NCBI RefSeq assembly: GCF_963921235.1
Contig: NC_086097.1
Coordinates: 162,008,001-162,072,000, forward strand
Direction: 5' to 3'
Length of the DNA: 64,000 nt
Source: Mobula hypostoma
Taxonomy: Eukaryota
Shown in pieces: positions 21,184 to 62,692 of the stretch; the first letter of the stretch is position 1, and each line of letters starts with the position of its first letter. The notes under the pieces are model-generated. The model saw nothing but the letters and a program-made list of their open reading frames with translations. It made no database searches and was not told where the DNA came from. The translations under genes were made by a program, and so were the position numbers.

Positions 21184-21279
21184 AATTAATGTTTGTCCTC
21201 ATCTTGTATTGTACTTTGCTCCTGCTGCAAAAAGCTAATTTCTATGGCAGCTATACCCTGTGAATATATGCCTATGATA

Positions 21280-25575: not shown

Positions 25576-28094
25576 AGGATCCTCTTTTGAGTCAGTATGG
25601 GTGGAAGTCAGGAACAGGAAGGGAGCAGTTGCTCTATTGGAGGTATTCTATAGGCCCCCTGGGAGCAGCAGAGATACAGAGGAGCAGATTGGGAGGCAGA
25701 TTTTGGAAAGGTGCAAAAATAACAGGGTTGTTATTATGGGTGACTTTAACTTCCCCAATATTGATTGGCACCTGATTAGTTCCAAGGGTTTAGATAAGGC
25801 AGAGTTTGTTAAGTGTGTCCAGGATGGATTCCTGTCACAGTGTGTGGACAGGCTGACAGGGGGAATGCCATACTAGATCTAGTACTAGGTAATGAACTGG
25901 GTCAGGTCACAGATCTCTCAGTGGGTGAGCATCTGGGGGACAGTGACCACCGCTCCCTGGCCTAGCATTATCATGGAAAAGGATAGAATCAGAGAGGACA
26001 GGAAAATTTTTAATTGGGGAAGGGCAAATTATGAGGCTATAAGGCTACAACTTGCGGGTGTGAATTGGGATGGTATTTTTGCAGGGAAATGTACTATGGA
26101 CATGTGGTTGATGTTTAGAGATCTCTTGCAGGATGTTAGGGATAAATTTGTCCCGGTGAGGAAGATAAAGATGGTAGGGTGAAGGAACCATGGGTGACAA
26201 GTCAGGTGGAAAATCTAGTCAGGTTGGAAGAAGGCAGCGTACATGAGGTTTAGGAAGCAAGGATCAGATGGGTCTATTGAGGAATATAGGGAGCAAGAAA
26301 GGAGCTTAAGAAGGGGCTGAGAAGAGTAAGAAGGGGGCATGAGAAGGCCCTGGCGAGTAGGGTAAAGGAAAACCCCAAGGCATTCTTCAATTATGTGAAG
26401 AAAAAAAGGATGACAGGAGTGAAGGTAGGACTGATTAGAGATAAAGGTGGGAAGATGTGCCTGGAGGCTGTGGAAGTGAGCGAGGTCCTTGATGAATACT
26501 TCTCTTCGGTATTCACCAATGAGAGGGAACTTGATGATGGTGAGGACAATATGAGTGAGGTTGATGTTCTGGAGCCTGTAGATGTTAAGGGAGAGGAGGT
26601 GTTGGAGTTGCTAAAATACATTAGGACGGATAAGTCCCCAGGGCCTGACGGAATATTCCCCAGGCTGCTCCACGAGGCGAGGGAAGAGATTGCTGAGCCT
26701 CTGGCTAGGATCTTTATGTCCTTGTTGTCCACGGGAATGGTACCGGAGGATTGGAGGGAGGCGAATGTTGTTCCCTTGTTCAAAAAAGGTAGTAGGGATA
26801 GTCCGGGTAATTATAGACCAGTGAGCCTTACGTCTGTGGTGGGAAAGCTGTTGGAAAAGATTCTTAGAGATAGGATCTATGGGCATTTATAGAATCATAG
26901 TCTGATCAGGAACAGTCAGCAAGGCTTTGTGAAAGGCAGATCGTGTCTAACAAGCCTGATAGAGTTCTTTGCGGAGGTGACTTGGCATATAGATGAGGGT
27001 AATGCGGTGGATGTGATCTATATGGATTTTAGTAAGGCATTTGACAAGATTCCACAAGGTAGGCTTATTCAGAAAGTCAGAAGGCATGGGATCCAGGGAA
27101 ATTTGGCCAGGTGGATTCAGACTTGGCGTGCCTGCAGAAGGCAGAGGGTGGTGGTGGAGGGAGTACATTCAGATTGGAGGATTGTGACTAGTGGTGTCCC
27201 ACAAGGATCTGTTCTGGGACCTCTACTTTTCGTGATTTTTATTAACGACCTGGATATGGGGGTAGAAGGGTGGGTTGGCAAGTTTGCAGACGACACAAAG
27301 GTTGGTGGTGTAGTAGATAGTGTAGAGGATTGTCGAAGATTGCAGAGAGACATTGATAGGATGCAGAAGTGGGCTGAGAAGTGGCAGGTGGAGTTCAACC
27401 CAGAGAAGTGTGAAGTGGTACACTTTGGAAGGACAAACTCCAAGGCAGAGTACAAAGTAAATGGCAGGATACTTGGTATTGTGGAGGAGCAGAGGGATCT
27501 GGGAGTACATGTCCACAAATCCATGAAAGTTGCCTCACAGGTGGATAGGGTAGTTAAGAAAGCTTATGGGGTGATAGCTTTCATAAGTCGAGGGTTAGAG
27601 TATAAGAGTCGTGATGTAATGATGCAGCTCTATAAAACTCTGGTTAGGCCACACTTGAAGTACTGTAAACAACAGGAATTCTGCAGATGCTGGAAATTCA
27701 AGCAACACACATCAAAGTTGCTGGTGAACACAGCAGGCCAAGCAGCATCTGTAGGAAGAGGTGCAGTCGACGTTTCAGGCCGAGACCCTTGTCAGGACTA
27801 ACTGAAGGAAGAGTGAGTAAGGGATTTGAAAGTTGGAGGGGGAGGGGGAGATCCAAAATGATAGGAGAAGACAGGAGGGGGAGGGATAGAGCCAAGAGCT
27901 GGACAGGTGATAGGCAAAAGGGGATACGAGAGGATCATGGGACAGGAGGTCCGGGAAGAAAGACAGTGGGGGGCGGGGGGGACCCAGAGGATGGGCAAGA
28001 GGTATATTCAGAGGGACAGAGGGAGAAAAAGGAGAGTGAGAGAAAGTGTGCATAAAAATAAGTAACAGATGGAGTATGAGGGGGAGGTGGGGCC

Positions 28095-28917
28095 TTAGCG
28101 GAAGTTAGAGAAGTCGATGTTCATGCCATCAGGTTGGAGGCTACCCAGACGGAATATAGGGTGTTGTTCCTCCAACGTGAGTGTGGCTTCATCTTTACAG
28201 TAGAGGAGGCCGTGGATAGACATGTCAGAATGGGAATGGGATGTGGAATTAAAATGTGTGGCCACTGGGAGATCCTGCTTTCTCTGGCGGACAGAGCGTA
28301 GATGTTCAGCAAAGCGGTCTCCCAGTCTGCGTCGGGTCTCGCCAATATATAAAAGGCCACATCGGGAGCACCAGACGCAGTATATCACCCCAGTCGACTC
28401 ACAGGTGAAGTGTTGCCTCACCTGGAAGGACTGTTTGGGGCCCTGAATGGTGGTAAGGGAGGAAGTGTAAGGGCATGTGTAGCACTTGTTCCGCTTACAC
28501 GGATAAGTGCCAGGAGGGAGATCAGTGGGGAGGGATGGGGGGGACGAATGGACAAGGGAGTTGTGTAGGGAGCGATCCCTGCGGAATGCAGAGAGAGGTG
28601 GAGAGGGAAAGATGTGCTTAGTGGTGGGATCCCGTAAGAGGTGGCGGAAGTTACGGAGAATAATATGTTGGACCCGGAGGCTGATGGGGTGGTAGGTGAG
28701 GACCAGGGGAACCCTATTCCTAGTGGGGTGGTGGGAGGATGGAGTGAGAGCAGATGTACGTGAAATGGGGGAGATGCGTTTAAGAGCAGAGTTGATAGTG
28801 GAGGAAGGGAAGCCCCTTTCTTTAAAAAAGGAAGACATCTCCCTCGTCCTAGAATGAAAAGCCTCATCCTGAGAGCAGATGCGGCGGAGACGGAGGAATT
28901 GCGAGAAGGGGATGGCG
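28095..28917 (-). pseudogene. C-terminal part of Penelope-like ORF: Cys-rich linker + GIY-YIG endonuclease (5'-truncated)
   Basis: ORF 28095-28838: PCKRNKCYTC linker, GVIYCVWCSRCGLLYIGETRRRLGDRFAEH, HFN...H, GMN; no RT core retained. Confidence 0.9.
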
Positions 28918-29359
28918 TTTTAATTCCACATCCCAGTTCCATTCTGACATGTCTATCCACGGCCTCCTCTACTGTAAAGATGAAGCCACACTCAGGTTGG
29001 AGGAACAACACCTTATATTCCGTCTGGGTAGCCTCCAACCTGATGGCATGAACATCGACTTCTCTAACTTCCGCTAAGGCCCCACCTCCCCCTCATACCC
29101 CATCTGTTACTTATTTTTATGCACACATTCTTTCACTCACTCTCCTTTTTCTCCCTCTGTCCCTCTGAATATACCTCTTGCCCATCCTCTGGGTCCCCCC
29201 CCCTTTGTGTTTCTTCCCGGACCTCCTGTCCCATGATCCTCTTGTATCCCCTTTTGCCTATCACCTGTCCATCTCTTGGCTCTATCCCTCCCCCTCCTGT
29301 CTTCTCCTATCATTTTGGATCTCCAACTTTCAAATCCCTTACTCACTCTTCCTTCAGTT

Positions 29360-29395
29360 AGTCCTGACGAAGGGTCTCGGCCTGAAACGTCGACT
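29360..29395 (+). ncRNA. Minimal type-I hammerhead ribozyme (intact copy)
   Basis: AGTC-CTGACGA-AGGGTCTCGGCCT-GAAA-C-GTC-GACT: stem I AGTC/GACT, core CUGANGA, stem-loop II, GAAA, palindromic ACGU in place of stem III, predicted cleavage after GUC (C29391). Confidence 0.85.
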
Positions 29396-29830
29396 GCACC
29401 TCTTCCTACAGATGCTGCTTGGCCTGCTGCGTTCACCAGCAACTTTGATGTGTGTTACTTGAAGTACTGTGTCCAGTTCAGGTCGCCTCACTATAGGAAG
29501 GATGTGGAAGCATTGGAAAGGGTACAGAGAATATTAACCAGGATGCTGCCTGGTTTAGAGAGTATAGATTATGATCAGAAATTAAGGGAGCTAGGGCTTT
29601 ACTCTTTGGAGAGAAGGAGGATGAGAGGAGACATGATAGAGGTGTACAAGATATTAAGAGGAATAGATAGAGTGGACAGCCAGCGCCTCTTCCCCAGGGC
29701 ACCGCTGCTCAATACAAGAGGACATGGCTTTAAGGTAAGTGGTGGTAAATTCAAGGGGGATATTAGAGGAAGGTTTTTTACTCAGAGAGTGGTTGGTGCA
29801 TGGAATGCACTGCCTGAGTCATTGGTGACT

Positions 29831-31185
29831 TATCTAACTTGATGCTTTGCAAAAGCTCCAGCACATCCTCTTTCTTAATATCTACATGTTCAAGCTTTTT
29901 AGTCTGCTGTAAGTCATCCCTACAGTCGCCAAGATCCTTTCCTGTAGTGAATACTGAAGCAAAGTACTTATTAAGTACCTCTGCTGTCTCCTCTGGTTCC
30001 ATACACACTCTTCCACTGTCACACTTGATTGGTCCTATTCTTTCACATCCTATTCTCTTGTTCTTCACATATTTGTAGAATGCCTTAGGGTTTCCTTAAT
30101 CCTGTCCACCAAAGCCTTCTCATGGCCCCTTCTGGCTCTCCTAATTTCTTTCTGAAAGCTCCTTCCTGCTAGCCTCATAATCTTCTAGATTCCTATCATT
30201 ACCTAGTTCTTTGAACCTTTCATAAGCTTTTCTTCTTGACTAGATTTGTACACCACGGTTCCTGTACCCTACCATCCTTTCCCTGTCTCATTGGAACGTA
30301 CCTATGCAGAACTCCACACAAATATCCCCTGAGCATTTGCCACATTTCTTCCGTACATTTCCCTGAGAACATCTGTTCCCAATTTATGCTTCCAAGTTCC
30401 TGTCCAATGGCCTCATATTTCCCCTTACTCCAATTAAATGCTTTCCTAACTTGTCTGTTCCTATCCCTCTCTAATGCTGTGGTAAAGGAAATAGAATTGT
30501 GATCATTTTCTCCAAAATGCTCTCCCATTGAGAGATCTGACACCTAACCCGGTTCATTTCCCAAATCCAGATCAAGTACAGCCTCTCCTCTTGTAGGCTT
30601 ATCTACATAGTGTCAAGAAACCTTCCTGAACACACCTAACAAACTCCACCCCATCTAAACCCCTTGCTGTAGGGACATGCCAATCCATATTCGGGAAATT
30701 AAAATCTCCCACCACGAAACCCTGTTATTATTACACCTTTCCTGAATCTGTCTCCCTATCTGCTCCTCGATGTCCCTGTTACTATTAGGTGATCTATAAA
30801 AAACACCGATTGAAGTTATCGACCCCTTCCTGTTCCTAACTTCCGCCCACAGAGACTCAGTAGACAATCCCTCCATGTCTTCCTCCTTTTCTGCAGCCGT
30901 GACACTACCTCTGATCAACAGTGTCAAGCCATCGCCTCTTTTGCCTCCCTTCCTGTCCTGGCTGAGACATCTGAAGCCTGGAACTCAAAGTAACCATTCC
31001 TACCCCTAAGCCATCCAAGTCTCTATAATGGCCACGACATCATAGCTCTAATTATTGATCCACGCTCTAAGCTAATCGGCTTTGATCATAATACTCCTGC
31101 ATTAAAATAGACACATTTCAAACCATCGGTCTGAGCGCATCCCTTCTCTATCACCTGCCTATCCTCCCTCTCACACTGTCTCGCA
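29831..31185 (-). mobile_element. CR1 LINE endonuclease/linker portion
   Basis: ORFs EVRNRKG...FYRSPN, GEHFGENDHNSI and LNKYFASVFT...KLDKSP on the minus strand. Confidence 0.88.
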
Positions 31186-31620
31186 TTAACTCTGTATCGA
31201 CAGCAGGAAATCATATTGTAAAAAACTCCTGGAGTATAACTGGAGTGTATATTCCAAGTCTGCTTAACTGTCTTCGTGCAACGAACCCACCATCCCAGAA
31301 ATCAATCAGGTGGACCTTTGCGGCATTCATTTTATGTACATCCTTCTTTGGGCTGGGAAATTAAAATAAGCATACTCCTTCTGACTTGGTCTTATCAGTT
31401 TTCATTTATTCCGTACAGTCCAAGCTGGAAATCACAGTCTTGGCAATGTTTCTCAGTGACCTCTGTGGCTTTTCTAGTGCTTTCACATCCTTCTGTTATG
31501 TGATAACCCTTTACTTTGCTCTTCACTTTTTTTATCAGATCTTTGTCCATCTTTCATAAAGAAAATTTGACTGTGTCAGTGCTTCTGCTGCTTCAAAACA
31601 TCCACCATTGTTCCTGTAGC

Positions 31621-32445
31621 TGTATAACAACTGACGTCCTGTCACACTCACCTCAATAATAAGCAAATGCTTTGAGAGGCTGGTCAAGGACTACATCTGC
31701 AGCATGCTACCACCCACATTGGACCCCCTACAACAGGGGTCCCCAACCTTCTCTGCACCGCGGACCGGTTTAATATTGTCAATATTCTTGTGGACTGGCC
31801 GACAGAGGGGGTGGTGGGGGTGCAGGTGGTGTTAGTCAACAGTGGGCATGACAGGGAATGAGCAAAGGTGCAGCTGACTCATATCATTTCATATCGCCAA
31901 ATCATATCATTTCCCCGTGGCCTGGTAGCACATGCTTTGTGACCCGGTGGTTGGGGACCACTGTCCTACAATTTGCCTACCGACACAATCGAGTGAAGGA
32001 TAATGCAATAACCACAGCTCTACACACTGTCCTTACACACCTGGAGAAGAAGAATTCTTATGTGTGAATGCTGTTCTTTGACTACTGTTCAGCGTTCAAC
32101 ACCATAATTCCATCCAGGCTTAACAAGAAGCTCAGAAACCTCAGCCTTCACCCTGTCTTGTGCAGCTGGATCCTGGACTTCCTGTTAGATCGCCGAGAGA
32201 ATGGGCTCCCTCACCTCTGCCCCTCTGACCCTCAACACAGGAACTCCTCAAAGCTGTGTCCTAAGCTCCTTCCTTTCCTCTCTGTACACCCCTGACTGCA
32301 TTGCCATCCACAGCTCCAATCTGCTAATTAAAGTTGCTGACGATACTATATTGATTGGCCTTATCTCAAATAATAATGAGGCACCCTACAGAGAAGTCAT
32401 TACCCTGACACCGTGGTGTCAAGTAAACAACCTCTCCTTCAATGT
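31621..32445 (+). mobile_element. Rex1/Babar LINE RT fragment, split by a MITE
   Basis: LDPLQFAYR, FDYCSAFNTIIP, TGTPQSCVLS and KVADDT motifs. Confidence 0.8.
31734..31963. mobile_element. 230-bp hAT (Charlie-like) MITE
   Basis: TIRs CAGGGGTCCCCAACC / GGTTGGGGACCACTG; 8-bp TSD CCCTACAA / TCCTACAA. Confidence 0.85.
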
Positions 32446-32489
32446 TGCTTTGGCTCTCATTTTTTTGCTTTCAATTGCTTTTTCTCTTT

Positions 32490-33534
32490 AGAACCACAGA
32501 ACATCACAACACAGAAACAGGCCTTTTGGCCTTTCTTGGCTGTGCCAAACCATTTTACTGCCTAGTCCATACACCTCTTATCCATGTACCTGTCCAAGCT
32601 TTTCTTAAATGTTAAAAGTAAGCCTGCATTTACCACTTCATTTGGCAGCTCATTCCACACTCCCACTATCCTCTCCATGAAGAAGTCGCCCCCCCAATGT
32701 TCCCTTTAAACTTTCCCCCCTTCACCCCAACCCATGTCCTCTGGTTTTTCTTCTCCCCTAGCCTCAGTGGAAAAAGCCTGCTTGCATTCACTCTATCTAT
32801 ATCCATCGTAATTTTATATACCTCTGTCAAATCTCCCCTCATTCTTCTATGTTCCAGGGAATAAAGTCCTAACCTATTCATCCTTTCTCTGTAACTCAGT
32901 TTCTCATGTCCCGGCAACATCCTTGTAAACCTTCTCTGCACTCTTTCAACCTTATTAATATCCTTCCTGTAATTTGGTGACCAAAACTGTACACAATACT
33001 CCAAATTCAGCCTCACCAATGCCTTATACAACCTCACCATAACATTCCAACACTTATACTCAATACTTTGCATCTGTATTCCCAGAGCCCTCTGTTCTAC
33101 TGCACTCCTCAGTGCCCTACCATTTAACTTCTCTGTTCTACCTTGGTTTGTTCTTCCAAAGTGCAATAGCTCATACTTATCTGTATTAAACTCCATCTGC
33201 CATTTTTCAGTCCATTTTTCCAGCTGGTCCAAATCCCTCTGCAAGCTTTGAAAACCTTCCTCATTGTCTGCTACACCTCCAATCTTTGTATCATCAGCAA
33301 ATTTGCTGATTCAATTTGCCACATTATCATCCAGATCATTGATATAGATCATGAATAACAATGGACCCAGCACTGATCCCTGTGGCACACCACTAGTCAC
33401 AGGCCTCCACTCAGAGAAGCAATCCTCCGCTACCACTCTCTGGCTTCTCCCATTGAGCCAATGTCTAATCCAATTTACTACCTCTCCATGTATACCGAGC
33501 GAATGAATTTTCCTAACTAACCTCCCATGCGGGA
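32490..33534 (-). mobile_element. CR1 LINE RT 3' portion
   Basis: ORFs 33311-33598 ([11 protein letters not shown]) and 32666-33244 (LEYCVQFWSP...ERVQRRFTRM); TAGAAC-type tail at ~32490. Confidence 0.88.
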
Positions 33535-34280
33535 GTTTAAATAGTTTGACATGACCTCCCATGTCAACCATTTCTACATGATTTGACACTGAATTCAAGT
33601 ATAGCTTTTATCTTGCGATTCTTCAATCTGATTTTTTAATGAAAAGAAACTTTTTTGCCTATTAATTATTCTGGATGTCCAGTTTTCTTTGCTGATATTT
33701 TTATTCAGCTTATATTTACTTCATTAGATACCACTGATGCCAGCTATCTTGATATAGTGTATACTCCTGCAGAAAGTAAGATTTTCTCTCACTGCTGTAC
33801 CCATTTCACTTATTGCTGTAAAGCAAACGTGTAAGCCCGACTGTGTTACCATGAAAATATTTAAATGCTTGTCTTCCCCTGTTTTTTGCTTGCTTTAGAA
33901 ATTTAAATTCTATAAGCAAATGGCTTTCAGAAAACAGAATACAGTGTATTGGCCTGAGTTAATATGGTTGGGTGTTTGTCGTAAATGTATGTATTATGTT
34001 TTAAAACCAGACTTAAGAGCACAACCAACAACTCCATGTTCAGTTACAACAACTATATTGAATTCCTGTGTATACAGTGATGGAAATCATGTGTTTGCCA
34101 TGGTACACCCTTCTGACTTTAAAGTGGTAGCTCCCATTTATAGCAAGTTCCCTCCCCCTGAAAGGGAATGGTCGAATCCTGTGCAATTATTGTAAATAAC
34201 CCCTAGGTATGCGGAATGAACTCATTGCAGAGATTGCTGAAAATGCATAATATTGATCATTTTACACATTCATTTTTCAG

Positions 34281-34333
34281 GTTGTCAAATAGTGAAAAGC
34301 AGGGATTGAGGACTCGAGCTGTCTCAGTCTCAG
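34281..34333 (+). CDS. PTK2: Focal adhesion kinase 53-nt exon, LSNSEKQGLRTRAVSVS
   Basis: catttttcag acceptor, CAG|gtaaga donor; phase 2 to phase 1; matches FAK LANSEKQGMRTHAVSVS. Confidence 0.95.
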
Positions 34334-35841
34334 GTAAGATGAAGGTTTGAAACTTGTCACTTTTAGTGGGATGTAGAAGCTCATGCAGAGAGTGAAATTA
34401 TACATTTCCTTTATGTTTTCAAGTTGTTAAAGGTGTATCTTTGCATTTTCTACTTGCGAATTTGTGGACAAGGGGAAAATAAATTCCAAAGCTTAATCGT
34501 TTTTGCTGCTTTAAATTAAACAGATTTGTTTTTATGCTTCGTTGAAGCATGTGGCTGAGTATTTTGCACATCAATGTACATTTGAAACGAAATATAACTT
34601 GACTCATAAACAATTCCATATTATGCTAATTATTTCACACCTAAAAGGCCCATTGTTATTGTCTTTTACAAGGAGGGAGTTGTCAATGCATCACCAATAA
34701 TGTGTTGTGCCTGAAAAGTTGGTGTAATGTCAGCTCCTGTGTGATAATTACAAATTTCTTGATGTTATTATATTTAACAACTGCAAATCTTGGGTACAGA
34801 TTGGAGTTAGAATTTTAAAATTAGGCCCTTTGTCTTCCAGGTGGTAAAATAATGAGTTGAACCTGATGACATTAAGAGGTTCTTGCTGCATAATACTGAA
34901 ATTTATATTTGAAGATATCTTTGCTGGTTAATACAGTACTCATTTCACCAGCTGTTTTACCCCAACAGAGGAACTTATTCTCATCTAATCTTTTGAAATT
35001 GTTGCAACATTAAATTCTGCTCCATAAAGTTGTGGCTTAACAGAATTACGAAATGAGTACCTATGTTATTTATGATGTAGCAGAAAGCATTGATTACAAT
35101 TAAACGTTTGGTTGCTAAGTTGGCACAAAAGCTAGACTCAGTAAGCCACAGGCCTTTTTAACTCTGTTAAGTTGAAATCAACATAAAAAATGTATTCTTT
35201 CTGAATGTCACAGGGGCTCCATCCTATTTTCAGGTCGATCACAGATGAATGTTAAATGCCAGTCGACTGAGAACAAATAGAAGCTCATTGAAATTTCAGT
35301 CAAAGCATAGAGTGAGCTGTGTGTTGTGACCTCAGTGTTAAAATGACGATGAGGCCTAATATTGGATGTGAAAGAACTTCTTGTGTAAGAATTATTTTCA
35401 GTTTTCTGTTATAGGATGTCCAAGGAGTTGATAGTGGACTGCATTGACTCTTGCGCCCTTAAGCCCTTATGAAGTTTGGAAAAAAATATAATATCTAAGT
35501 GGTAGTACCTTTTAATCAGATTAAGGTTGTACCTCTTACAAAATGTGGGCAAAACTGAGAGCATTAATTGCACCAAACATCATTCTAAATTTTGTTTTCC
35601 CTTGGTGGAATAGAGAAGAATAAAAGGAAAGATTTCATTTGTTTAGCACTTTTCATGATCCAAAGGCATTCCAAGTAACTTGACTATTATTAAAGTGTCG
35701 TCTCCATTTCATTGAAGGAGGTGCAACAGCACCCTGTTTGTGCGCACCATGATCTACAGTAAGGCATATATTATCATTTATGTTTAAAATTATAGTTTTT
35801 GAAGTTAAATATGGGCCAAAATTATAGAAATAACCTATATA

Positions 35842-42293: not shown

Positions 42294-42659
42294 TATTTGA
42301 ATTTGGGATCCCAGTTTGGTGCGGGGGAGTCCATCCGGTGTTCAAAGAGTAAAATTTGAATGGTGGACTAGTACAGCAGATTTATATTCCTGTAAAGAAT
42401 AAGTGAACCAGATAGAGTTTTTACTTTACTTCTAGAAGTTTCTGTCATCATAATTGCTAATGACCTTTTATTTCCCCTTTTAAAAGTTCGGTTCTTATCA
42501 ACAGAATTTAAGTTCCAAGCTACAGTGGTTTTGATTTGAATTCTGAGATCTCTGTTGTTTGTCCAGGCCTGAAATTAACCTGTGAACCACCAATATGCTA
42601 TTTAACACAGAAGAGGGCAGTCTTGCTCTTTGGTCCTGTTGTTTCCTCAGAGCTGTATT

Positions 42660-43845
42660 ACATTTTTTACATGCCCTTACCTACTGCACCACAAGCTTCC
42701 ACATCCAGCATGTCATTCTCTGTAACCTCCACCATTTTCAACTGGATCCTACCACGAAAACTTTCCCCACCCCACACTTTCCATTTTCCATGGGGATCAC
42801 TTTTTCCCTTGTCCATTCATCGCTCCCCAAAGATCTTCCTCCTGGCACTTATCCCTACATCTTCTGCCTGCCCATTCATCTCCTCCGTAACCACCATTTA
42901 GGGTCCAAACAGTCCTTCCAGGTGAGACACACTTCACTGCAAGTCTGTTGGGGTCATCTAGTGTATTTGGTATTCACGGTACGGCCTTCTCTGCATCAGT
43001 GAGACCTGACATAAGTTGGGGGAGCGCTTTGTCAAGCACCTTTGCTCAGTCTGTAACAGGAACAACCATTTTAATTCCATTCCTCAGTCATTCTAACATG
43101 TCTGTCCATGGCATAATGAAGCCACTCTCAGCTTGGAGAAGCAACACCTCATATTCTGTCTGGGTAGTCTCCAACCTTACAGAATGAACATTAATTTCTC
43201 TAACTTCTAGTCATTTTTTCACCTCCCCCCATCTTTCTTTTTCCATTTCCCATTCTGGCACCCCTGTTACTGCTTCTCTTCTCTTCTCACCTGCCTATCA
43301 TCTCCTTCTGATGGCTTCTCCTCTGTCCCTTTCTCACATGGTCCACTCTCCTTCTCCTGTCAGATTCCGCCTCCTTCAATCCTTTACTTTTTCCACCTTA
43401 CACGTCCCAGCCAAGTGGACAAGGGAGTCACACAGAGAGAAAACACTGTAGAAAGCAGATGCTGGGGGGGAGGTAGCGATGTGTTTAGTGATAGGATCCC
43501 ATTGAAGATGGGGAAAGTTGCAGAGAATGAGGTCACTCTCAGATCGGAGGAGCAATAAATCATATTCTCTCTAGCTGACCATCAAACTGGCAGCATGGAC
43601 ATGGATTTTACTGCCCTTTACCCTTTCCACTTCAGCCCTTTACCTTTCCCACTTACCTTCAGCTCTTTACCTTTCCCACTTATTCAGCTTCTCGCTTCAT
43701 CCTCCTTCCATCTATCAACTGCCAGATAAATGTCCTTGCCCAGAAACGTCAACTCTTCATAGATGAAGCCTGACCTGCTGAGTTCCTCCTACATCTTGTG
43801 TATGTTACTCTGGCTTTGCAGCATCTGCAGAATCTCTTGTGTTTA
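42660..43845 (+). mobile_element. Older, rearranged Penelope-like element
   Basis: Degenerate linker/GIY-YIG (GSKQSFQVR). Short inverted piece at ~43411-43530, about three copies of CCTTTACCTTTCCCACTT at ~43613-43682, terminus CATCTGCAGAATCTCTTGTGTTT. Confidence 0.75.
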
Positions 43846-45398: not shown

Positions 45399-46995
45399 CT
45401 GGTCAAAATTTCTTTTACTGTGAATAGCTAAGCAAGTAAAAGATGACCTGATTTCCAAAAGGCATAAAGTTAAAGATGATGCATTTCTTTAATATTTTAA
45501 GCAAGATTACTTTTTTATTTCCATCTTTTACAGTTTCAAAAGAACAAAAAAGGAGAAGGGCCCAAAGCAAAAGTTTGGGCACCCTGCATGGTCAGTATTT
45601 AGTAACACCCCCTTTGGCAAGTATCACAGCTTGTAAATGCTTTCTGTAGCCAGCTAAGAGTCTTTTAATTCTTGTTTGGGGGATTTTCGCCTATTCTTCC
45701 TTGCAAAACACTTCTAGTTCTGTGAGATTCTTGAGCTGTCTTGCATGCACTGCTCTTTCGAGGTCTATTGACAGATTTTCGATGATGTTTAGGTCGGGGG
45801 ACTGTGAGGGCCATGGCAAAACCTTCAGCTTGAGCCTCTTGAGGTAGTCCACTGTGGATTTTGAGGTGTGTTTAGGATCATTATCCTGTTGTAGAAGCCA
45901 TCCTCTTTTCATCTTCGGCTTTTTTACAGATGGTGTGATGTTTGCTTCCAGAATTTGCTGGTATTTAATTGAATTCATTCTTACCTCTACCAGTGAAATG
46001 TTCCCCGTGCCACTGGCTGCAACACAAGCCCAAAGCATGATCGATCCAACCCTGTGCTTAACAGTTGGAGAGGGGTTCTTTTCTTGAAATTCTGCACCCT
46101 TTTTGCTCCAAACATACCTTTGTTCATTGTGGCCAAAAAGCTCTATTTTAACTTCATCAGTCCACAGGACTTGTTTCCAAAATGCATCAGGCTTGTTTAG
46201 ATGTTCCTTTACAAACTTCTGACGCTGAATTTTGTGGTGAGGACACAGGAAAGGTTTCCTTCTGATGACTCTTCCATGAAGGTCATATTTGTGCAGGTGT
46301 CATTGCACAGTAGAACAATGCACCACCACTCCAGAGTCTGCTAAATCTTCCTGATGGTCTTTTGCAGTCAAACGGGAGTTTTGATTTGCCTTTCTAGCAA
46401 TCCTATGAGCAGTTCTCTCGGAAGGCTTTCTTGGTCTTCCAGACCTCAACTTGACCATCACCATTCCTGTTATCTGCCATTTGTTAATTACATTAGGAAC
46501 TGAGGAAACGGCTACCTGAAAACGCTTTGTTATCTTCTTGTGCCTTCTCCTGCTTTGTGGGCATCATTTATTTCAATTTTCAGAGTGCTAGGCAGCTGCT
46601 TAGAGGAGCACATGGCTGCTGATTGTTGGGACAAGGTTTGAGGAGTCAGGGTATTTAGGAAGCTTTGAAATTTGCATCACCTGGCCTTTCCTAGCAATGA
46701 CTGTGAAGAAGCCATAGTCCTATCAAGTTAATTAAGGTCTGAGACCTTGGTAAAAGTTATCTGAGAACTCAAATCTCTTGGGGTGTCCAAACTTTTGCAT
46801 GGTGCTCCTTTCGTTTTTTTCACTCTAAAATTGTACAAAACAAAAATAATACACTATTTTTCTTGCTTAAAATCTTGAAACAAATGTTTCATCTTTAACT
46901 TTATGACTTTTGGAGATCAGTTCATCTTCTACTCACTTAACTATTCACAGTAACAGAAATTTTGACCGGGGTGCCCAAACTTTTGCATGCCACTG
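45399..46995 (-). mobile_element. Tc1-family transposon (same family as 1-1200), degenerate transposase ~46613-45591
   Basis: ORF 45691-46038 QQDNDPKH...[12 protein letters not shown]. End ...GCATGCCACTG|TA at 46995; the other end lacks the outermost ~28 bp. Confidence 0.93.
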
Positions 46996-49523: not shown

Positions 49524-49604
49524 GAATGAATCATTGCCAGCCCAGAGTAAAGAAAGCCAGGCGCTTTCTTCCTTTCATCCTCTGTTCTCAACACACAACC
49601 AAGG
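49524..49604 (+). CDS. PTK2: Alternative FAK exon, homologue of 'box 28': (G)MNHCQPRVKKARRFLPFILCSQHTTK
   Basis: Pyrimidine tract + taaag acceptor, AAGG|gtactg donor, 81 nt, phase 1/1; matches the rodent insert GVSHCQHKVKKARRFLPLVFCS... as recalled. Confidence 0.85.
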
Positions 49605-51315: not shown

Positions 51316-51388
51316 TCCACTTTTCTTCCCTTCCTTGTTTCTCTTCCCTTCCTTGTTTCTCCTCCTTTCTTGCTGCCTGGATTCACAG
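51316..51388 (+). promoter_or_regulatory. Polypyrimidine tract with tandem duplication and TGC motifs upstream of box 6
   Basis: TCTTCCCTTCCTTGTTTC occurs twice in tandem, followed by TGCTGC 13-18 nt before the exon. Confidence 0.6.
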
Positions 51389-51406
51389 ATGAAATTAGTG
51401 GGGACG
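51389..51406 (+). CDS. PTK2: Alternative 18-nt FAK micro-exon 'box 6', DEISGD
   Basis: Long CU-rich tract + cacag acceptor, GACG|gtatga donor, phase 1/1; peptide identical to the known neuronal FAK box 6. Confidence 0.92.
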
Positions 51407-53078: not shown

Positions 53079-54325
53079 TGATCTTGAACAGGATTCGCAC
53101 CGCCACTGACCCTAAGCTAAGATTCAATCAGAATGGTCTTCGGCAGAAGCGCAGACAGTAATGCAAATATTTGCTCTCCATAGAATCATCGAGGAAGTCA
53201 AGAAGAACAACCTACCAGCCATGCTTACTTTCATCGATTTTTGCAAAGCTTTTGACTCCCTTCATCAAGGTAAAATGCTGAAGATCCTGAAAGCTTATGG
53301 AGTACCAGACCGTCTACTGAGAGCAATAGAGTCCAGCTATACCAAAACCATGGCAAAAGTTGTATCACCAGATGGAGAAACAGCAGAGTTCAAGCTCCTA
53401 GCTGGTGTGCTGCAAGGGGACACTCTGGCGCCCTACGTCTTTATAATCGTCCTTGATTATGCTCTACATCAAGCTGCCAAAGATCATGACAAGCTTGGTT
53501 TTACCATAAAACCAGGACGAACCAAAAGGGTCAGACCAGTTACGTTCACAGATATTGATTTTGCAGGTGACATAGTCCTGTTCTCTGACCAGATGGAGGA
53601 AGCACAGCAGCTACTGACAAAAGTGGAAATTGAGTGCAATAAAGTTGGACTTCACCTAAACGCTAAAAAGACAGAGTACATGGCACTTAACTGCGATGAA
53701 GGTACTCTCAAGACCATAAAGAATGATACCGTTAAGAAAGTCTTTGACTTCAAGTACCTTGGGTCAAGGATGATGAGTTCGGAGAAGGACATAAAGATAC
53801 AGAAGGCGCTGGCGTGGAGGGCTATGAACGACATGAAGGAAATCTGGAAGTTGAACCTGACCAGAGGGCTTAAAAAGAGGATCTTCATAGCAGTCATAGA
53901 GTCCATTCTTATGTACGGATGCGAGATGTGGACACTCACCAAGACTATATGAAAGTCTCTGGATGGTTGCTATACATGAATGCTCCGGATAGCTCTTGAC
54001 ATGAGTTGGCAACAGCACATGACAAACATCGAGCTCTATGATGACCTACCGATGCTCACCACTAAGATCGAGGCGAGAAGACTGCAACTAGCGGGGCACT
54101 GTAAACGCCACCCCAAGCTACCTGCCAGCCTAGTCATCATATGGGATTCCAAGCATGAGAGGATGAACCTTGGGCACCCTCCCAAGACTATGATCAACAT
54201 GCTCCTAGAAGACAGCGGCGCAGTTAATGTAGATGAACTGAACACTCTGAGGGAGAGGGAGAAGTGGAGGGTCTGTCATCATGCCCAACGCCGGCCCCCT
54301 AGGCTTGAGTTGATGTAGTAGTAGT
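53079..54325 (+). mobile_element. RTE-clade LINE, 5'-truncated
   Basis: ORF 53161-53952: FIDFCKAFDS, GVLQGDTLAPYVF, DIDFAGD (decayed FADD), FKYLGS, LMYGCEMW; (TAG)n tail at ~54315-54326. Confidence 0.88.
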
Positions 54326-54417
54326 ACTTGGGGTGGGTTGTTGCATTCTTAGAAAATGTAATGCAAGAACCCACCCCCAGAATGCCTGCAGAAATAAATT
54401 AAATATTGCCTGCCACA

Positions 54418-54641
54418 AACAAGAGAAAATCTGCAGATGCTGGAAATCCAAGCAACACACACAAAATGCTGGAAGAACTCAACAGCCCAGGCAGCATCTA
54501 TGGAAAGATTACAGTCAACGTTTCGGGCCAAGACCCTTCACCAGGATTTGATGAAGGGTCTTGGTCCAAAGCATTGACTGTACTGTTTTCCATAGATCAT
54601 GGCTGGCCCGAGTTCCTCGGCATTTTTGTGCGTGTTGCTTG
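54418..54641. mobile_element. Mini-palindromic Penelope-like insertion (two termini fused at their hammerheads)
   Basis: Duplication AAATATTGCCT (54401-54411 / 54642-54652); arms invert around ~54545. Confidence 0.85.
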
Positions 54642-54829
54642 AAATATTGCCTTCCTCATTTAAAACTGCAGTTCTATTATGAAAAGTTGCATCATTTCTG
54701 CATGCATCAAGAACTCTGAATTGAAAAGAATACATTTTATTTACAGTTTCAGTTTTCTTCATATTTTTGTGAGAGTGGTTTTAGTTCCGTATCTTGAGTC
54801 TTTGTCCAGTGATTTGTGAATTCTGAATC

Positions 54830-55226
54830 CTTCCCTCTTCCTCAATTCCCCATTCTGGCTCTCACCTCTTCTCCATACCTGCTTACAACCTTCTCCTGGT
54901 ACCCCGCCTCCTTCCCTTTCTCCTATGGTCCTCTCTCCTCTCTGATGAAAGTTGTTCTCCAGTTCTTTGCTTTTTTACCTATCACCTCCCAGCTTCTTAC
55001 TTTATCCCCCTCTCCCATCTGCCTGGCTTTACCTATCACCTTCTAGCTTGTCCTCCTGCCTGTCCATCCATCTTCTTACTCTTCCTTTCCAGTCCTGATG
55101 AAGGGTCTCTGCCTGAAATGTTGAGTGATTATTAATTTCCATAGATGCTGCTTGACCTGCTGAGTTCCTTTAGCACTTTGTGTTTGTTTCTCTGGATTTC
55201 CAGCATCTGCAGAATCTCTTATGTTT
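54830..55226 (+). mobile_element. Older Penelope-like terminal repeat with hammerhead motif (55091-55126)
   Basis: AGTC-CTGATGA-AGGGTCTCTGCCT-GAAA-TGTT-GAGT and terminus CAGCATCTGCAGAATCTCTTATGTTT. Confidence 0.78.
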
Positions 55227-55242
55227 AAAACTTGATATGTGT

Positions 55243-55920
55243 ATCAAAGTTTCAAAGTGCATTTATTATCAAAGAATGTATACATTATACAACCTTGAGA
55301 TTTGTTGCTTACAGGCATGAACAAAGCAAGGAACCCAAAAGAACCCAATTAAACAAATAAGACCAACCCTGCCCCCCCATCCCCCAGTTACCCAGGGAGA
55401 ATGAAAAAAAAGCACACCAAACAAATCACATAAGCAATAGAAGCGAGTAACAACAAGGGCATTCCGAACCAAATTGAGTCCTTAGATCCAAATCCCCAGA
55501 GCAGCCCAGAGTAGGCCCAAAGCCTCAGTATTCAGTTCATCATATTAGTGGAGCATATCGCCACAAAGTTCGCAGACACAAAGCACAGCAGCCGGGGGCA
55601 GTCTTACAGCCTTAGCGTAACAGAGAGAGAAGGCTGCAGTCTAAATGGGCTGGTGTGTAAATTGTGCGAGCCTCACGCTAGGACCCAGGACCTGCTGCCG
55701 ATGAATCGCTCTGGACCAAGATTTTGCTGCCGAAGGAGCCATTCTCGACATCTCCAAATCGGTTCGGCTCCCAGAGCGATCCAACTTCATCCGACTCTTG
55801 ACACATTGCCTTTCCAGTTAGATTGACCAAACAGCAGATTGTACCTCACATTAGGACCCAGGCCTGTCATGGCGAGTCATTCCAGGCCTTGAACAAGCTG
55901 CTTATCGATTCATTTCAGAC
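55243..55920 (-). repeat. Non-coding retroposon-like repeat with TTTGAA-type tail
   Basis: AAAGTTTCAAAGTGCATTTATT end, similar to the left end of 56761-57603; right boundary approximate. Confidence 0.45.
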
Positions 55921-56760
55921 CTGGATTTTAGCATTATTGCAGTTACTGTGTATTTTTAATATCGTGTTTAAAAATGCATAGCTCTGTTCTTCCTTTCAAT
56001 AAAAAGCAAAGTGCTACAAATACTCAACAGACTTGTAGAGAGAAAAACAATGAAAATTTCAAGTTCAAGTTTAATTACGAGTTCAACCCCATAGAAGCCG
56101 CTGCACCCAAGTGCGCAGCTATCTGGTTGATGACTACCTGATTTTATGTTTTTGTATTTTGTTCATCAAAAATTACTTTTTAAACAAAACAATTGCAGAA
56201 TCAGTCAATTTTCAGATTTCTTAATCGCCTTGATGCCTGTCATATCAATATCTTTCAGTTTCCCTGTTCAAAATAATAAATTATATAGAAGGCATTACAC
56301 AAAAAGTAGATCAAGAACATCTGAGACAAGTACCATAACAGTTTCTTCCTAGGATCTGATTGTATGACCATTACAGAGTTTCAGTTCACACTTCCTATCC
56401 TATTTCTGTAGCCTTTAATTTAACTAATATTCAAAATTTGTTGATTTCAATTTTGAATATATTCAGCAATTATGGATCATCATCCTTACTTATCATGACT
56501 ACACAAACTAAAGAAGTTCCTTGTTGTCTCAGTCTTAAATGTTCTGAGAAATATGTCCTGAGTTCTTGACTCTTCGTTATTATTATTTCACTTTTAATAA
56601 AACTTAATTCTCCATAACTTGTGTATTCACTTGTGAATGTAAATGTGCATTATTTCTCTACTATCTTATTGCTTTCTTATTCAGTGTTTTAGTTTATCCT
56701 GTTTTAGTCTCTAAATTTACATTTCTATTTATAGTTCCCAAACTGCCTCAGCTGACCCAC

Positions 56761-57603
56761 TTCAAAGTTCAAAGTACATTTAATATCAGAGAGAACGTAT
56801 CCAGTACACAACCTGAAATTTGTCCCCTTCAGACATCCATGAAACAAACTACATAAAACAATAGAACATCAAAGACCCCCTACCCCTTCCCTTCGTACAA
56901 GCACCAGCAAAAAGCATCGACCCACGCCCACAGAAGCACCCTCCCCTCAACCATACAAGCAACAGCAGAAGCATCAAAGAGTCCATTGATCAAGAGCACA
57001 TTATACTGCAGTCCACAAAGCCAACACCTCGATATCTCAGACAGGCTCTCTCTCTCTAGTGAGGGAAAGAAAGATCACTCCTGCAACAATGAGAATGGAA
57101 ACCAGCAACTTGATGTTCCGATGTTATAATCTTCCTTGTTGCTTCACCAAGCCCCTTCTTCCGCCCCCCCCCCCCCCCCCGGTGGACCAACAGGCTCTCA
57201 TTCTTCATCAAATTGGGGGGGGTCACTCGGGCACGGGGGCCTTACTCCGACAGCAACTAGTGATTAACAAACACGTCACCTATGGTCTCAGTGTTTAAGT
57301 CTCATATGATTTATCAGTCGGTGAAATCAGCAAGGAACCGGGTTGCCCACTGGGCTGCTCCCTGACTTCTGACCTCCCAACCTCAAGGGCATACGTCTTC
57401 CAGACTGCTTCTTGAGATAGCCCTGCTAGGCTGCACAGTCGGACCGAAAACCCAGTGCTTGTGAAGAACCGTAGTTTGAACTGCAGATCACAGACTCCTA
57501 CAGGACCACAACCTTCTAGAAAAGAAAGACAGAAGAGAAATAAGCTGTTTTGTAATGAACGGAAGAAGTCAGCTGGGTCTGCAGGACCTGCTGGCGCCAT
57601 CTT
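56761..57603 (-). repeat. ~840-bp non-autonomous retroposon-like element
   Basis: Minus strand starts AAGATGGCGCC and ends with an ATTAAA signal and (TTTGAAC)n-like tail; no convincing ORF. Confidence 0.5.
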
Positions 57604-59122
57604 TCCTACCTTTCATACCTTTGTTTAATTTTAAACTGGTTTTGGACTTCACTACGTTCTCAACCAACTTCGTATGAAAACTACCGTATTATGTTCTTCC
57701 TTTCCTTGAGGATCGATTTTATAGAACCATTATTTAACACAATAATGTTATACATGACAAGACTATCCTCTAGTTTGGTATGTGACCTATTGCTCTTGAA
57801 AACTGAAATGTATTTTATAAGTTTATCCTCCCAATTAATTTCACTATTTGTCATGATTTTTCCAATTGATTGAAGGTTAAAATTTCCTGTGACAATTGCA
57901 AGCCCTTCCTTTCATGTTAAAGTATAATTTGACATTATCATTTCTGTTAGAGAGCTTCTCCATTGTTATGTGCATTTCATCTATGGCTGTTCCTACTTCA
58001 TCCTCCAATTTATCATACAGTTCAGTTTCTTATATCTTCCTGTATTATATAAGATGAGCGTCATTCATCTTTGTTTTCTAATCTGCACACTGTTTGCAAT
58101 TCTGAGGAATATTCAGATATCAAATTAACTATCTTGCAAGTGCGTTTCATTCTCCATCGAATGAGGGGGATTATTTCGTTATTCTTCAGTGATGCCATTA
58201 ATTCATTTGCCTTTATAAATTCATTTGAGTATTGTTTGTCCAATGGAAGAGTTGCTATCTGTTGCATTAGCAAAATATTCATACTTTTCCTGAGCAACCA
58301 CATTTCATTTAATTGACTGTGATAAGAATTTATACCTCTTGTTAACTTGGATGGGAGTTGGGGAGGAATGAGAAATGGGGAGAGAAAAGCACAAGAGGTT
58401 GAACCTGAGGAACAAATTTCTAATTCTTCAAAGTGAAATTTTAAATCTTCCTACTGATGGTACAGGAATAGGCTGCTGTTTCGTGGGTCAAAATGAAAAT
58501 TGAAGTAAAACCAGAAAATCTTGGAAATATTCAGCAGATCTGGCAGCATTGTGGGTCAATGAGATAGAATGGCAGGCAATTGAGAATACATAGCCAAAAT
58601 GGTAATGATGCAAGGCAAAAGAGCATGGCATTGGGACACATGATTTATTGACATTCTTTTCTTAGTGCCTCTATATTTGAAATTCATACGCAATAGTGAC
58701 AGTCCCAAACTTGTTTGTCTCCTTTCGTTCATCATTTTCCAACTCAGAATATCTATGGTATGAATTGCAATTCTTATCATTCAGTTAGTGAGGAATGATT
58801 TTGAGAGTAGTGTGTTTATTTATTTATATTTTTTATTTAATTCTGTTTAACTCATTTATTCAATTGTACAAAGATATTCTGGCATGTTTTCAATTTTTAA
58901 AAATTTCTTAATATATTTTCTGAATGTATTTGAATGTTTGTACTTTTGTATAGGTTTAACAGCCTGAGTGTGCCTTAGCTGGCTGTCAAAATGTTTTTCT
59001 GTTTCAAGGGCAGGCCTTTTTCTTATGCAAGACCCTGTCTCTACACAATTTGAATATTAGACAGGTCTTTCAGTGCAAGTTGACAATAAAGATTCAGCAA
59101 AGCATACGTTTCTTCTTGCCAC

Positions 59123-60617
59123 ATGAATCAGAATCAAGTTTAATGTCACTGGCATATGTTGTGAAATTTTTTTTAACTTTACAACAGCAGTACAATAAAA
59201 TACATGATAAACATAGAGGAAAAAACTGAATTACAATAAGTATATATATGTCTGTTAAATAGTTAAGTTGAAATAAGTAGTGCAAAGACAAAAACCAATA
59301 TAAAAGCAACACACATCAAAGTCACTGGTGAACGCAGCAGGCCAGGCAGCATCTCTAGGAAGAGGTACAGTCAACGTTTCGAGCCAAGACCCTGCGTCAG
59401 GACTAACTGAAAGAAGAGATAATAAGAGATTTGAAAGTGGGAGGGGGAGGGGGAGATCCAAAATGATAGGAGAAGACAGGAGGGGGAGGGATGGAGCCAA
59501 GAGCTGGACAGGTGATTGACAAAAAGGATATGAGAGGATCATGGGACAGGATGACTAGGGAGAAAGAAAGGGGGAGGGGTGAAGCCCAGAGGATGAGCAA
59601 GGAGTATAGAGAGAGGGACAGAGGGAGTAAAAGGAGAGAGAGAAAAAGAATGTGTGTATATAAATAAATAACGGATGGGATACGAGGGGGAGGTGGGGCA
59701 TTAACGGAAGTTAGAGAAGTCAATGTTCATGCCATCAGGTTGGAGGCTACCCAGACGGAATATAAGCTGTTGTTCTTCCAACCTGAGTGTGGCTTCATCT
59801 TTACAGTAGAGGAGGCCGTGGATACTTCATCTCTACTGTCAAGATGAAGTTCCCTCTCTCTATACTCCTTGCCCATCATCTGGGCTTCACCCCCTCCCTC
59901 TTTCTTTCTCCCTAGGCCTCCCATCCCATGATCCTCTCATATCCCTTTTGCCAATCAACTGTCCAGCTCTTGGCTCCATTCCTCCCCCTCCTGTCTTCTC
60001 CTATCATTTCGGATCTCCCCCCTCCCCCTCCCACTTTCAAATTTCTTACTAGCTCTTCTTTCAGTTAGTACTGACGAAGGGTCTAGGCCCAAAACGTCGA
60101 CTGTACCTCTTCCTAGAGATGCTGCCTGGCCTGCTGCATTCACCAGCAACTTTGATGTGTGTTGCTTGAAATTCCAACATCTGCCGATTTCCTCATGTTT
60201 GCGTTTTTAAATATAAAAGTAGTGAGGTCGTGTTCATGGATACGATGTCCATTTAGAAATCTGATGGCAGAGAGAAGAGGCTGTTCCTGAATCGCTGAGT
60301 GTGTGCCTTCAGGCTTCTGTACCTCTTTCGGAGTGGTAACAATGAAAAGAGTGCATATCCTGGGTGGTGGGGGTCCTTAATGATGGACACCACCTTCCTA
60401 AGGCACTGCTCATTGAAGATGTCTTGGATACTATGGTGGCTAATACCCATGATGGAGCTGACTAATCTTACAAGTTTCTGCAACTCACTTCAGGCTTCTG
60501 TAGTAGCCCCTCCATACCAGATGGTGATGCAGCAGTCAGAATGCTCTCCATGGTACATTTGTAGAAGTTTTTGATTGCTTTAGTTGACAGACCAAATCTC
60601 CTCAAACTGGTAATGAA
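59123..60617 (-). mobile_element. Rex1/Babar LINE 3' end, split by a Penelope-like insertion
   Basis: GAATCAGAATCA tail at ~59125; ORF 60253-60483 similar to ORF 17807-18016. Confidence 0.82.
59307..60209. mobile_element. Penelope-like insertion with inverted arms
   Basis: 10-bp TSD AATATAAAAG (59297-59306 / 60210-60219); hammerhead motifs at 59369-59404 (-) and 60067-60102 (+). Confidence 0.9.
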
Positions 60618-61220
60618 ATCAGTGATGAATTCTTACCCAAGTAGTGGATTAGGAAGCGGTATGAATTTGAAGAGCAGAATGCTTGAATGGAATTGTTAAA
60701 TTCAAATGTTAAGTCTGTTGGACTGCAATGTGCCACTTTTTTTTAAAGGGGATTTATTAATCCTGAGCTTTATGGGGTTTATGGGAGGGGGGAAACGGAA
60801 CTGAAGTGAGAGATCAAAATCAGAAAGAGGCAAGAAATTAAATTGTCAGATTAATGTTTATTACATACTTAAGTATCTAAGTAATGGAAAGTTATCACTG
60901 AAATAAAAATTGTTCGGGCTGCTTAAACTGGAATAAACTGTTGAGAAAGTGATTTTCCATTTCTTTAAAAATATTTTTTTGGCTTAACACAGAATGCCTT
61001 TATATATTGCTCTTGCAGGCACGTTGAACCTCACGGATTATTGGAGCTTTTTCAGGACATTTTGTATGATTATGTGTGACTTTCTTAACCACACTTCTGA
61101 CTGACAGTTACAAATTTACAGACTTATAAATTGGAATTTTGAGCACAAAATTAGGTTATTTTTAAAGGAGACAAGGTTTCTAAATTTGTTGTTAATGCAA
61201 CAAAAGATAAGACAATGAAT

Positions 61221-62692
61221 AGAAACATACACAAAATGCTGGTGGAACGCAGCAGGCCAGGCAGCATCTATGGGAAGAAGTACAGTCAACGTTTCAGGCC
61301 GAGACCCTTTGTCAGGACTAACTGAAAGAAGAGATAGTAAGAGATTTGAAAGTGGGGGGGGGGGGGATATCCAAAATCACAAGAGAAGACAGGAGGGGGA
61401 GGGAAGAAGCTAAGAGCTGGAAAGTTGATTAGCAAAAGGGATGCAGAGTTGGAGAAGGGGGAGGATCATGGGACAGGAGGCTCAGGGAGAAAGATAGGGG
61501 GAGGGGAGCCCAGAGGAAGATGGAGAGCAGGCAAGGAGTGATTGTGAGAGGGACAGAGAGAGAAGAGAAAGAAGGGGGGGTAAATAAAAATAAATAAGGG
61601 ATGGGGTAAGAAGGGGAGGAGGAGCATTAATGGAAGTTAGAGAAATCAATGTTCATGCCATCACGTTGGAAGCTACCCAGATGGAATATAAGGTGTTGTT
61701 CCTCCAACCTGAGTGTGCCTTCATCTTGACAGTAGAGGAGGCCGTGGATAGACATATCAGAATAGGAATGGGACATGGAATTAAAATGTGTGGCCACAGG
61801 GTGATCCTGCTTTCTCTGGCGGACAGAGTGTAGGTGTTCAGCGAAATGGTCTCCCAGTCTGCGTCAGTTCTCACCAATATATAGAAGGCCACACCGGGAG
61901 CACCGAACATGGTATATCACCCCAGCCGACTCACAGGTGAAGTGTCGCCTCACCTGGAAGGACTGTCTGGGGTCCTGAATGGTGGTGAGGGAGGAATTGT
62001 AAGGGCAGGTGTAGCACTTGTTCCACTTACAAGGATAAGTGCCTGGAGGGAGATCGGTGGGAAGGGATGAGGGGGGGAACGAATGGACAAGGGAGTCGCG
62101 TAGGAAGTGATCCCTGCGGAAAGCAGAAAGAAGGCGGAGGGAAAGATGTATTTGGTGGTGGAATCCTGTTTTTTAAAGAAAGAGGCTTCCCTTCCTCCAC
62201 CATCAACTCTGCTCTCAAACGCATCTCTCCTATTTCACGCACATCTGCTCTCACACCATCCTCCCGCCACCCCAGTGGGGATAGGGTTTCCCTTGTCCTC
62301 ACCTACCAGCCCACCAGCCTCTGGGTCCAACATATAATTCTCCGTTACTTCCGCCACCTCCAACGGGATCCCACCACCAAGCACATCTTTCCCTTCCCCC
62401 GCTTTCTCCTTAGGCCTCCTGATCCATGATCCTCTCATATCCTTTTTGCCAGTCAACTTTTCAGCTCTTAGCTTCATCCCTCCCCCTCCTGTCTTCTCCT
62501 ACCATTTCAGATCTCCCCCTCCCACTTTCAAATCTCTTACTATCTCTTCTTTCAGTTAGTCCTGATGAAGGGTCTCGGCCCAAAACGTCGACTGTACTTC
62601 TTCCTATAGATGCTGCCTGGCCTGCCGTGTTCCACCAGCATTTTGTGTATGTTACTTGAATTTCCAGCATCTGCAGGTTTTCTCGTGTTTGC
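61221..62692. mobile_element. Penelope-like insertion with inverted arms and GIY-YIG remnant
   Basis: 14-bp TSD ATAAGACAATGAAT (61207-61220 / 62693-62706); inversion point ~62166; hammerhead motifs at 61284-61319 (-) and 62558-62593 (+). Confidence 0.9.

Follow-up and report, generated by a model that had tools for sequence, protein, structure and literature searches.

Penelope-like elements (PLEs) are the closest retroelement relatives of telomerase. The 64,000-nucleotide stretch of the Mobula hypostoma genome analyzed here (contig NC_086097.1, positions 162,008,001 to 162,072,000 of the forward strand; hereafter the window, from whose first letter all coordinates below are counted) contains four insertions of one PLE family, predicted to be of the Neptune type, in which two oppositely oriented copies lie within a single target-site duplication (TSD). 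We argue that these 5'-truncated, head-to-head insertions probably result from two target-primed reverse transcriptions at one site, with the starts at a long and a short end coupled. A 34-bp repeat was described in Drosophila virilis (Schostak et al. 2008, PMC2377424; this and the other papers given by identifier are cited from excerpts of their text). PLEs with inverted pseudo-long terminal repeats (pseudo-LTRs) and a "tail" have been presented without counts and ascribed either to self-priming or to resolution by the endonuclease (Arkhipova et al. 2013, PMC3846280; Craig et al. 2021, PMC8557442), and the origin of inverted PLE insertions is called unresolved (PMC8557442, PMC11167929). A PLE from an anole cuts and extends both target strands in vitro, and two internal reverse transcriptase (RT) starts bound its tail; these starts need no homology to the cut DNA, and a dimer is predicted (PMC11167929).

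The four insertions, designated A to D, each consist of two opposite arms with their 3' ends facing outward, one arm long-ended and the other short-ended, and are flanked by exact TSDs of 10–14 bp, all as stated in the initial annotation of the window; TSDs of at least 10 bp arose by chance in 0.05% of 20,000 draws of random coordinate pairs. With offsets counted from the TGTTT end at 27667, insertion A (27667–29456; 14-bp TSD at 27653–27666 and 29457–29470) comprises a long-ended arm on the minus strand (27667–28921, offset 0), with RT thumb, linker, GIY-YIG endonuclease, 3' untranslated region, hammerhead and tail, and a short-ended arm on the plus strand (28918–29456, offset -37), past whose end six more bases match the TSD beyond one G/A difference. 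The tail in this insertion (27667–27703, minus strand) is the 37 nt separating the short and long initiation sites, a term used as in PMC11167929. Insertion B (54412–54641; 11-bp TSD at 54401–54411 and 54642–54652) has a long-ended arm on the minus strand (54412–54545, offset +5) and a short-ended arm on the plus strand (54548–54641, offset -32), both stopping at the upstream edge of the hammerhead; its start, first placed at 54418, is at 54412, with five extra bases after the TSD. Insertion C (59307–60209; 10-bp TSD at 59297–59306 and 60210–60219) runs from a short-ended arm on the minus strand (59307–59824, offset -36, with 3 nt of microhomology) through a small plus-strand junction piece (59825–59850), which bears a family-wide allele differing from the short arm, to a long-ended arm on the plus strand (59851–60209, offset +9). 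Insertion D (61221–62692; 14-bp TSD at 61207–61220 and 62693–62706) has a short-ended arm on the minus strand (61221–62169, offset -34), an inner plus-strand piece from further upstream in the open reading frame (62169–62407) and, joined to that piece over a gap of about 630 nt, a long-ended arm on the plus strand (62402–62692, offset +2). The long and short ends are 36–45 nt apart (30–37 and 42–45 where microhomology blurs the ends), more than the 30–35 nt originally estimated. Since 4/4 long plus short pairs have p=1/16 (0.06) if ends are independent at equal odds, the window on its own is weak evidence and does not establish a pairing rule.

Copies with a single arm were expected to use the short end. 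This holds for the minus-strand copy at 21090–21184 (offset -37; exact 13-bp TSD at 21077–21089 and 21184–21196), the 5' end of which is the upstream edge of the hammerhead motif, but not for a young minus-strand copy at 25296–25578, which lies within a long interspersed nuclear element (LINE), lacks a TSD, shows about 7 nt of microhomology at its 5' junction and has the long end; single arms therefore use either end. Two old arms, at 43844 and 55226, also have the long end; a TSD was looked for at both and not found. The initial annotation had missed these three long-ended arms. It had also taken the "full" end for a sharp terminus. The element continues beyond that end as GCGTTTTTA at 60201–60209 (nine bases more), in run X1 the consensus of the 535 contigs that diverge from the reference at 27667 ends in the same letters as 60201–60209, and beyond those letters the X1 flanks are mixed (agreement 0.42). 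Because the arm at 60209 runs on and the X1 consensus agrees, the full end is not the end of the RNA. A fixed internal start is supported by the end clusters, and applies not just to the short end, as first proposed, but to both. Runs X1 and X11 are rich in the family (263,936 and 107,352 contigs), with two reads in X21 and none in X22.

Given the weakness of the 4/4 count taken alone, the animal contigs in bin G001 were examined. A profile search of genome contigs yielded seven relatives, six of them (L001–L006) in G001 and one (L007) in G002. G001 is a bacterial genome bin that evidently contains animal DNA; like G002 it holds animal contigs with many PLE families, an instance of host contamination in a reference collection. 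Minimal-hammerhead matches in G001 number 83, versus 8 for a control pattern. The largest of these families, F1, encodes a protein that likewise carries the linker (Neptune-like); it was sampled by taking the DNA around all 75 + 35 matches of two end motifs, irrespective of class. Among the 95 arm matches, 93 could be scored (the remaining two, C78 and C562, end before position 170, and neither is paired), and their ends are bimodal, most falling at reference positions 182–197 or 229–252 and about six elsewhere; the F1 tail is mostly 47–64 nt long. Of the 24 pairs whose arms face outward, 18 have an exact TSD of at least 6 bp (at least 10 bp in 13 pairs, only 6–8 bp in five), and every one of these 18 combines a long with a short end, 47–71 nt apart; two of the six others, C645 and C660, do the same. 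Two pairs were set aside: C15, a short plus short pair that lacks a TSD and whose flanks on the two sides are identical over 686 nt, which makes it a larger inverted duplication, and C243, a duplicate of C39. The independent F1 pairs are thus long plus short in 20 of 22 cases and long plus long in none (p ~6e-5 at equal odds). Bimodal ends with one of each class per insertion were what the initial annotation had proposed to look for, and this independent genome bears the expectation out. Single arms with a TSD in G001 include four to five long-ended copies and one short-ended copy (C69). One short F1 end recurs in 13 copies with a common downstream flank (C219, C252, C300, C327, C358, C378, C490, C567, C663), which indicates that another repeat took up a PLE end and amplified it; the copies were counted as one amplified insertion, unpaired. 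In the other hammerhead-bearing families of G001, 9/9 pairs with a TSD of at least 12 bp are asymmetric, by 19–41 nt, and two more scored by eye (C624, C283) bring the total to 11/11; pairs with no convincing TSD were left unscored (C39, C243, C214, C268, C312, C472, C569). Proteins of these families have no linker, so that those families which code for protein look Penelope/Poseidon-like.

The counts show that the choices of start at the two ends of an insertion are coupled, not independent. On the basis of these data, the sequence of events would begin with the GIY-YIG endonuclease nicking both strands about 10–15 nt apart, a stagger seen in the TSDs, to leave two 3'-OH ends. Reverse transcription would then be initiated internally on the RNA, at either of two sites that flank the tail and lie downstream of the hammerhead, as the end clusters suggest. 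The far (long) site would serve one target end and the near (short) site the other, and priming would draw on 0–6 nt of opportunistic pairing at either site. The two truncated cDNAs may be joined centrally via short matches or template jumps and then filled in, and the coupling itself would most simply be caused by an enzyme dimer with two active sites on two RNA sites. Two primings, one per target strand, as the initial annotation had suggested, are supported by the F1 pairing, by arms that are not nested and by extension of both strands in vitro (PMC11167929). A more tentative possibility, which we would not yet favor, is that PLEs integrate by obligatory paired priming, in which one dimer holds a single RNA at both sites, one per nicked strand, and the second polymerase displaces the first cDNA where they overlap; if so, the tail would represent the spacing of the two active sites, and the rule would span Neptune and Penelope/Poseidon.

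One short end in each two-armed insertion is also predicted by endonuclease trimming, in which both arms start out equally long, or derive from a DNA intermediate, and resolution of the intermediate involves endonuclease cleavage of one arm at the short site. The tail is ascribed "most likely" to such endonuclease-mediated resolution in PMC8557442, and, according to a citation in PMC11167929, recognition by the D. virilis endonuclease depended on the tail. Trimming is nevertheless unlikely, since RT starts at both sites in vitro, matching the genomic ends (PMC11167929), the short site is also where single arms flanked by a clean TSD end (21090 and, in G001, C69), and microhomology at F1 short ends is above chance, as priming predicts, although end-joining could also yield it.

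The relative extent of the arms bears on a further alternative, put forward for head-to-head PLE repeats in PMC3846280, in which there is one priming event: a cDNA primed at the long site, or alternatively an antisense template, folds back and serves as its own template, copying ending about 35 nt short before the product joins the second target end. Fold-back accounts for the second end never being the longer one. In several pairs the two arms have equal 5' ends and meet at a palindrome (54545 in the window; C85, C227, C491 and C539 in G001), insertion A has nested arms with private variants in common, and young partner arms are 99–100% identical; insertions A and B fit either fold-back or two primings. 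Fold-back requires, however, that the short arm lie within the long arm, and in 8/20 F1 pairs the short arm extends at least 15 nt further 5' than its partner; in two of these (C110, C591) the long arm consists of the tail only and the arms do not overlap. It likewise fails in insertions C and D, where the short arm covers sequence absent from the long side, unless later deletions are assumed, and the short end corresponds to an RT start of the anole element in vitro (PMC11167929). Arms that are not nested each need their own reading of the template, as two target-primed starts give, and the 8/20 F1 pairs therefore fit two primings and not the fold-back of one cDNA. The tail-only long arms refute fold-back as a general rule, and we regard it as quite improbable for these insertions. 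That starts are chosen independently, the pairing reflecting chance or the loss of symmetric pairs through a bias in survival or assembly, is very improbable: the window count alone (p=0.06) and the lack of a strand preference of the start site in vitro (PMC11167929) would allow it, but 20/22 F1 pairs and 11/11 pairs of other families oppose it, all 75 + 35 motif matches were taken whatever their class, and long plus short pairs are equally palindromic up to the short end, so that a strong bias is not obvious.

The two arms of an insertion overlap in 4/4 window cases and in most F1 pairs. F1 partners differ at 35/227 polymorphic-site comparisons (15%), versus 33% for non-partners, and this similarity, together with the near-identity of young partners, indicates that the two arms usually derive from the same source. 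Partner arms in the window are 97.7, 76, 92.3 and 88.2% identical and agree at most family-wide variable sites. Preferential shortening of the long arms, expected from collision of two polymerases on one RNA, was not seen, arms of at most 75 nt being about equally frequent in both F1 classes. The 5' truncations cluster at the upstream edge of the hammerhead in three window arms (21184, 54545–54548), and about 27/80 F1 arms start at reference positions 82–92, 25–35 nt past a TATA-like box. This clustered truncation point may be the transcription start, in which case the shortest arms may have been copied from the 5' pseudo-LTR of the RNA.

Initiation at the short site had been proposed to be guided by microhomology. 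Exact overlap, summed over 12 F1 pairs whose TSDs reach at least 10 bp (a microsatellite case was left out and one junction is doubtful), amounts to 21 nt at short ends versus 9–10 expected (P 0.004–0.009) and to 19 nt at long ends versus 9–11 expected (P 0.011–0.035), with an average of about 1.7 nt that is alike at both. Few-base pairing thus helps at both ends and does not define the short site; moreover, the starts observed in vitro are not homologous to the cut DNA (PMC11167929). When G-T wobble is allowed, post hoc, the window junctions give 20 nt versus 8.7 expected (P ~0.008, or 0.09 without 29456). A target A stands opposite a template G at 5/8 window 3' junctions (27667, 29456, 21090, 54641, 62692), as if a G-T wobble formed at the last T of the primer; the pattern is less evident in F1, where 6/24 junctions begin with A.

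Several observations weigh against coupled double priming. The two exceptions among the independent F1 pairs are C39, which combines an intermediate with a short end and of which C243 is a duplicate of the same event, and C205, a short plus short pair without TSD that is a real candidate exception. The G001 evidence comes from one bin of one animal. At the eight scorable window junctions exact microhomology totals 4 nt, versus 5.6 expected (P=0.76). Among the contig pieces listed for X1 and X11 none spans an insertion, and the short end is not among the best 12 of 3,493 loose-end rows. The number of templates is a further point: the junction piece of insertion C carries an allele that is not in the short arm, and a 14-nt segment of the short arm of insertion D is absent from its partner, so that these insertions hint at two templates, whereas the F1 similarity points to the same source. 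Finally, when the two target strands of the anole PLE were measured separately in vitro, top and bottom did not differ in start site (PMC11167929).

The coding part of the window arms consists of RT thumb, linker and endonuclease; neither the RT core of the family nor a full-length copy is present within the window. The C-terminal 274 amino acids of the PLE open reading frame (28095–28919, minus strand) contain a CX4CxxC linker, with the sequence CKRNKCYTC, and a GIY-YIG endonuclease with Cys and His residues. The latter matches PF01541 at residues 177–250 (E 3e-4) with 21.4 bits, just under the curated cut-off of 22.6, and C, H, R and E are conserved in an alignment. The closest named relatives are uncharacterized shark proteins with 56–62% identity, and longer relatives at 40–62% identity carry PF00078 together with GIY-YIG. 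A CX2-5CxxC linker between RT and endonuclease marks Neptune or Nematis and does not occur in Penelope/Poseidon (PMC8557442). The original assignment to Penelope does not stand, a Penelope/Poseidon identity being rejected by the CX4CxxC linker; judging from its sequence, the family is a putative Neptune-type PLE, with the qualification that the linker does not separate Neptune from Nematis. A hammerhead-like core motif, of the minimal type described in PMC4209133, is predicted 65–110 nt inside the ends. The copy at 27766–27795 (minus strand; CTGANGA...GAAAC GTC) has one base missing, and motif matches that look intact start at 29364, 60071 and 62562 on the plus strand and at 25425 and 21182 on the minus strand. 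An Rfam search at the gathering score gave no matches, hammerhead included. The family shows the features of endonuclease-bearing PLEs: GIY-YIG, minimal hammerhead motif, 5' truncation, inverted arms, TSD and a tail of 36–45 nt. The two initiation sites (27667–27712) are alike and GU-rich in the RNA; the start region of the anole element is AC-rich (PMC11167929). RNA folding placed a small hairpin at the short site in young copies with weak and inconsistent z-scores (-2.1 to +0.4), and we therefore make no structural claim for this site. A tree of eight arms had no supported branch. The hammerhead DNA pattern of the family had 0 matches in viral and metagenome contigs, and protein-based locus searches of such contigs gave none that was confirmed.

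The insertions at 25296 and 27667 are 2.1 kb apart in one LINE (25100–30300), which we take to be CR1-like and which retains long RT frames. PLE pieces that are older or more distant lie at 42675–43844, 54973–55227, 58495–58552 and 62787–62859, among them a rearranged copy with an internal inversion at 43416–43528. Two repeats of about 1 kb in opposite orientation (34–1066 and 45512–46539), 87–95% alike, probably represent another young transposon family. In G001, the tail of one F1 long arm is interrupted by the insertion of an element of about 100 nt with short inverted ends (C660:15569–15670).

Head-to-head arms are also produced by twin priming of L1, a process associated with Ostertag and Kazazian in which two target 3'-OH ends reportedly prime on the RNA, giving an inverted 5' arm within one TSD. 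L1 starts first at the poly(A) tail and then at a variable, homology-guided position, and its arms barely overlap. Tail-only long arms resemble this outcome. Unlike in L1, both starts are fixed internal sites here, and the arms usually overlap by 100 to >1000 nt; with overlapping arms and a fixed second start, the insertions are not L1-type twin priming, although a similar working may apply.

The closest described systems are the PLEs themselves. Compared with the tailed PLEs with inverted pseudo-LTRs (PMC3846280, PMC8557442), the pairing has been counted here, nesting of the arms is often lacking, and the tail measures 36–45 nt in the window and mostly 47–64 nt in F1. PAc, the Poseidon element of Anolis carolinensis (Frangieh et al. 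2024, PMC11167929), likewise has two adjacent internal RT starts that bound the tail downstream of a minimal hammerhead, and both strands of its AT-rich targets are cut and extended, again with a predicted dimer. It differs in belonging to the Poseidon clade with AC-rich starts, whereas the window family is predicted to be Neptune-type with GU-rich sites, and the excerpted text on PAc is silent on how the two starts are assigned to the ends of a single insertion. A literature search that covers few subscription journals found no published count of end pairing, and nothing on pairing appears in the excerpts of PMC8969392, PMC9977147 and bioRxiv 10.64898/2026.07.22.740005. A near-strict rule of one long and one short end, with arms that are not nested, excludes independent choice of starts, and simple fold-back as a general route. 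The coupling is directly testable in the existing anole in vitro system, and the rule offers curators a practical aid in finding the boundaries of PLE insertions. The architecture and both start sites were already known from the described PLEs; what is added here is the counted, near-strict pairing of the two ends together with the frequent lack of nesting between the arms.

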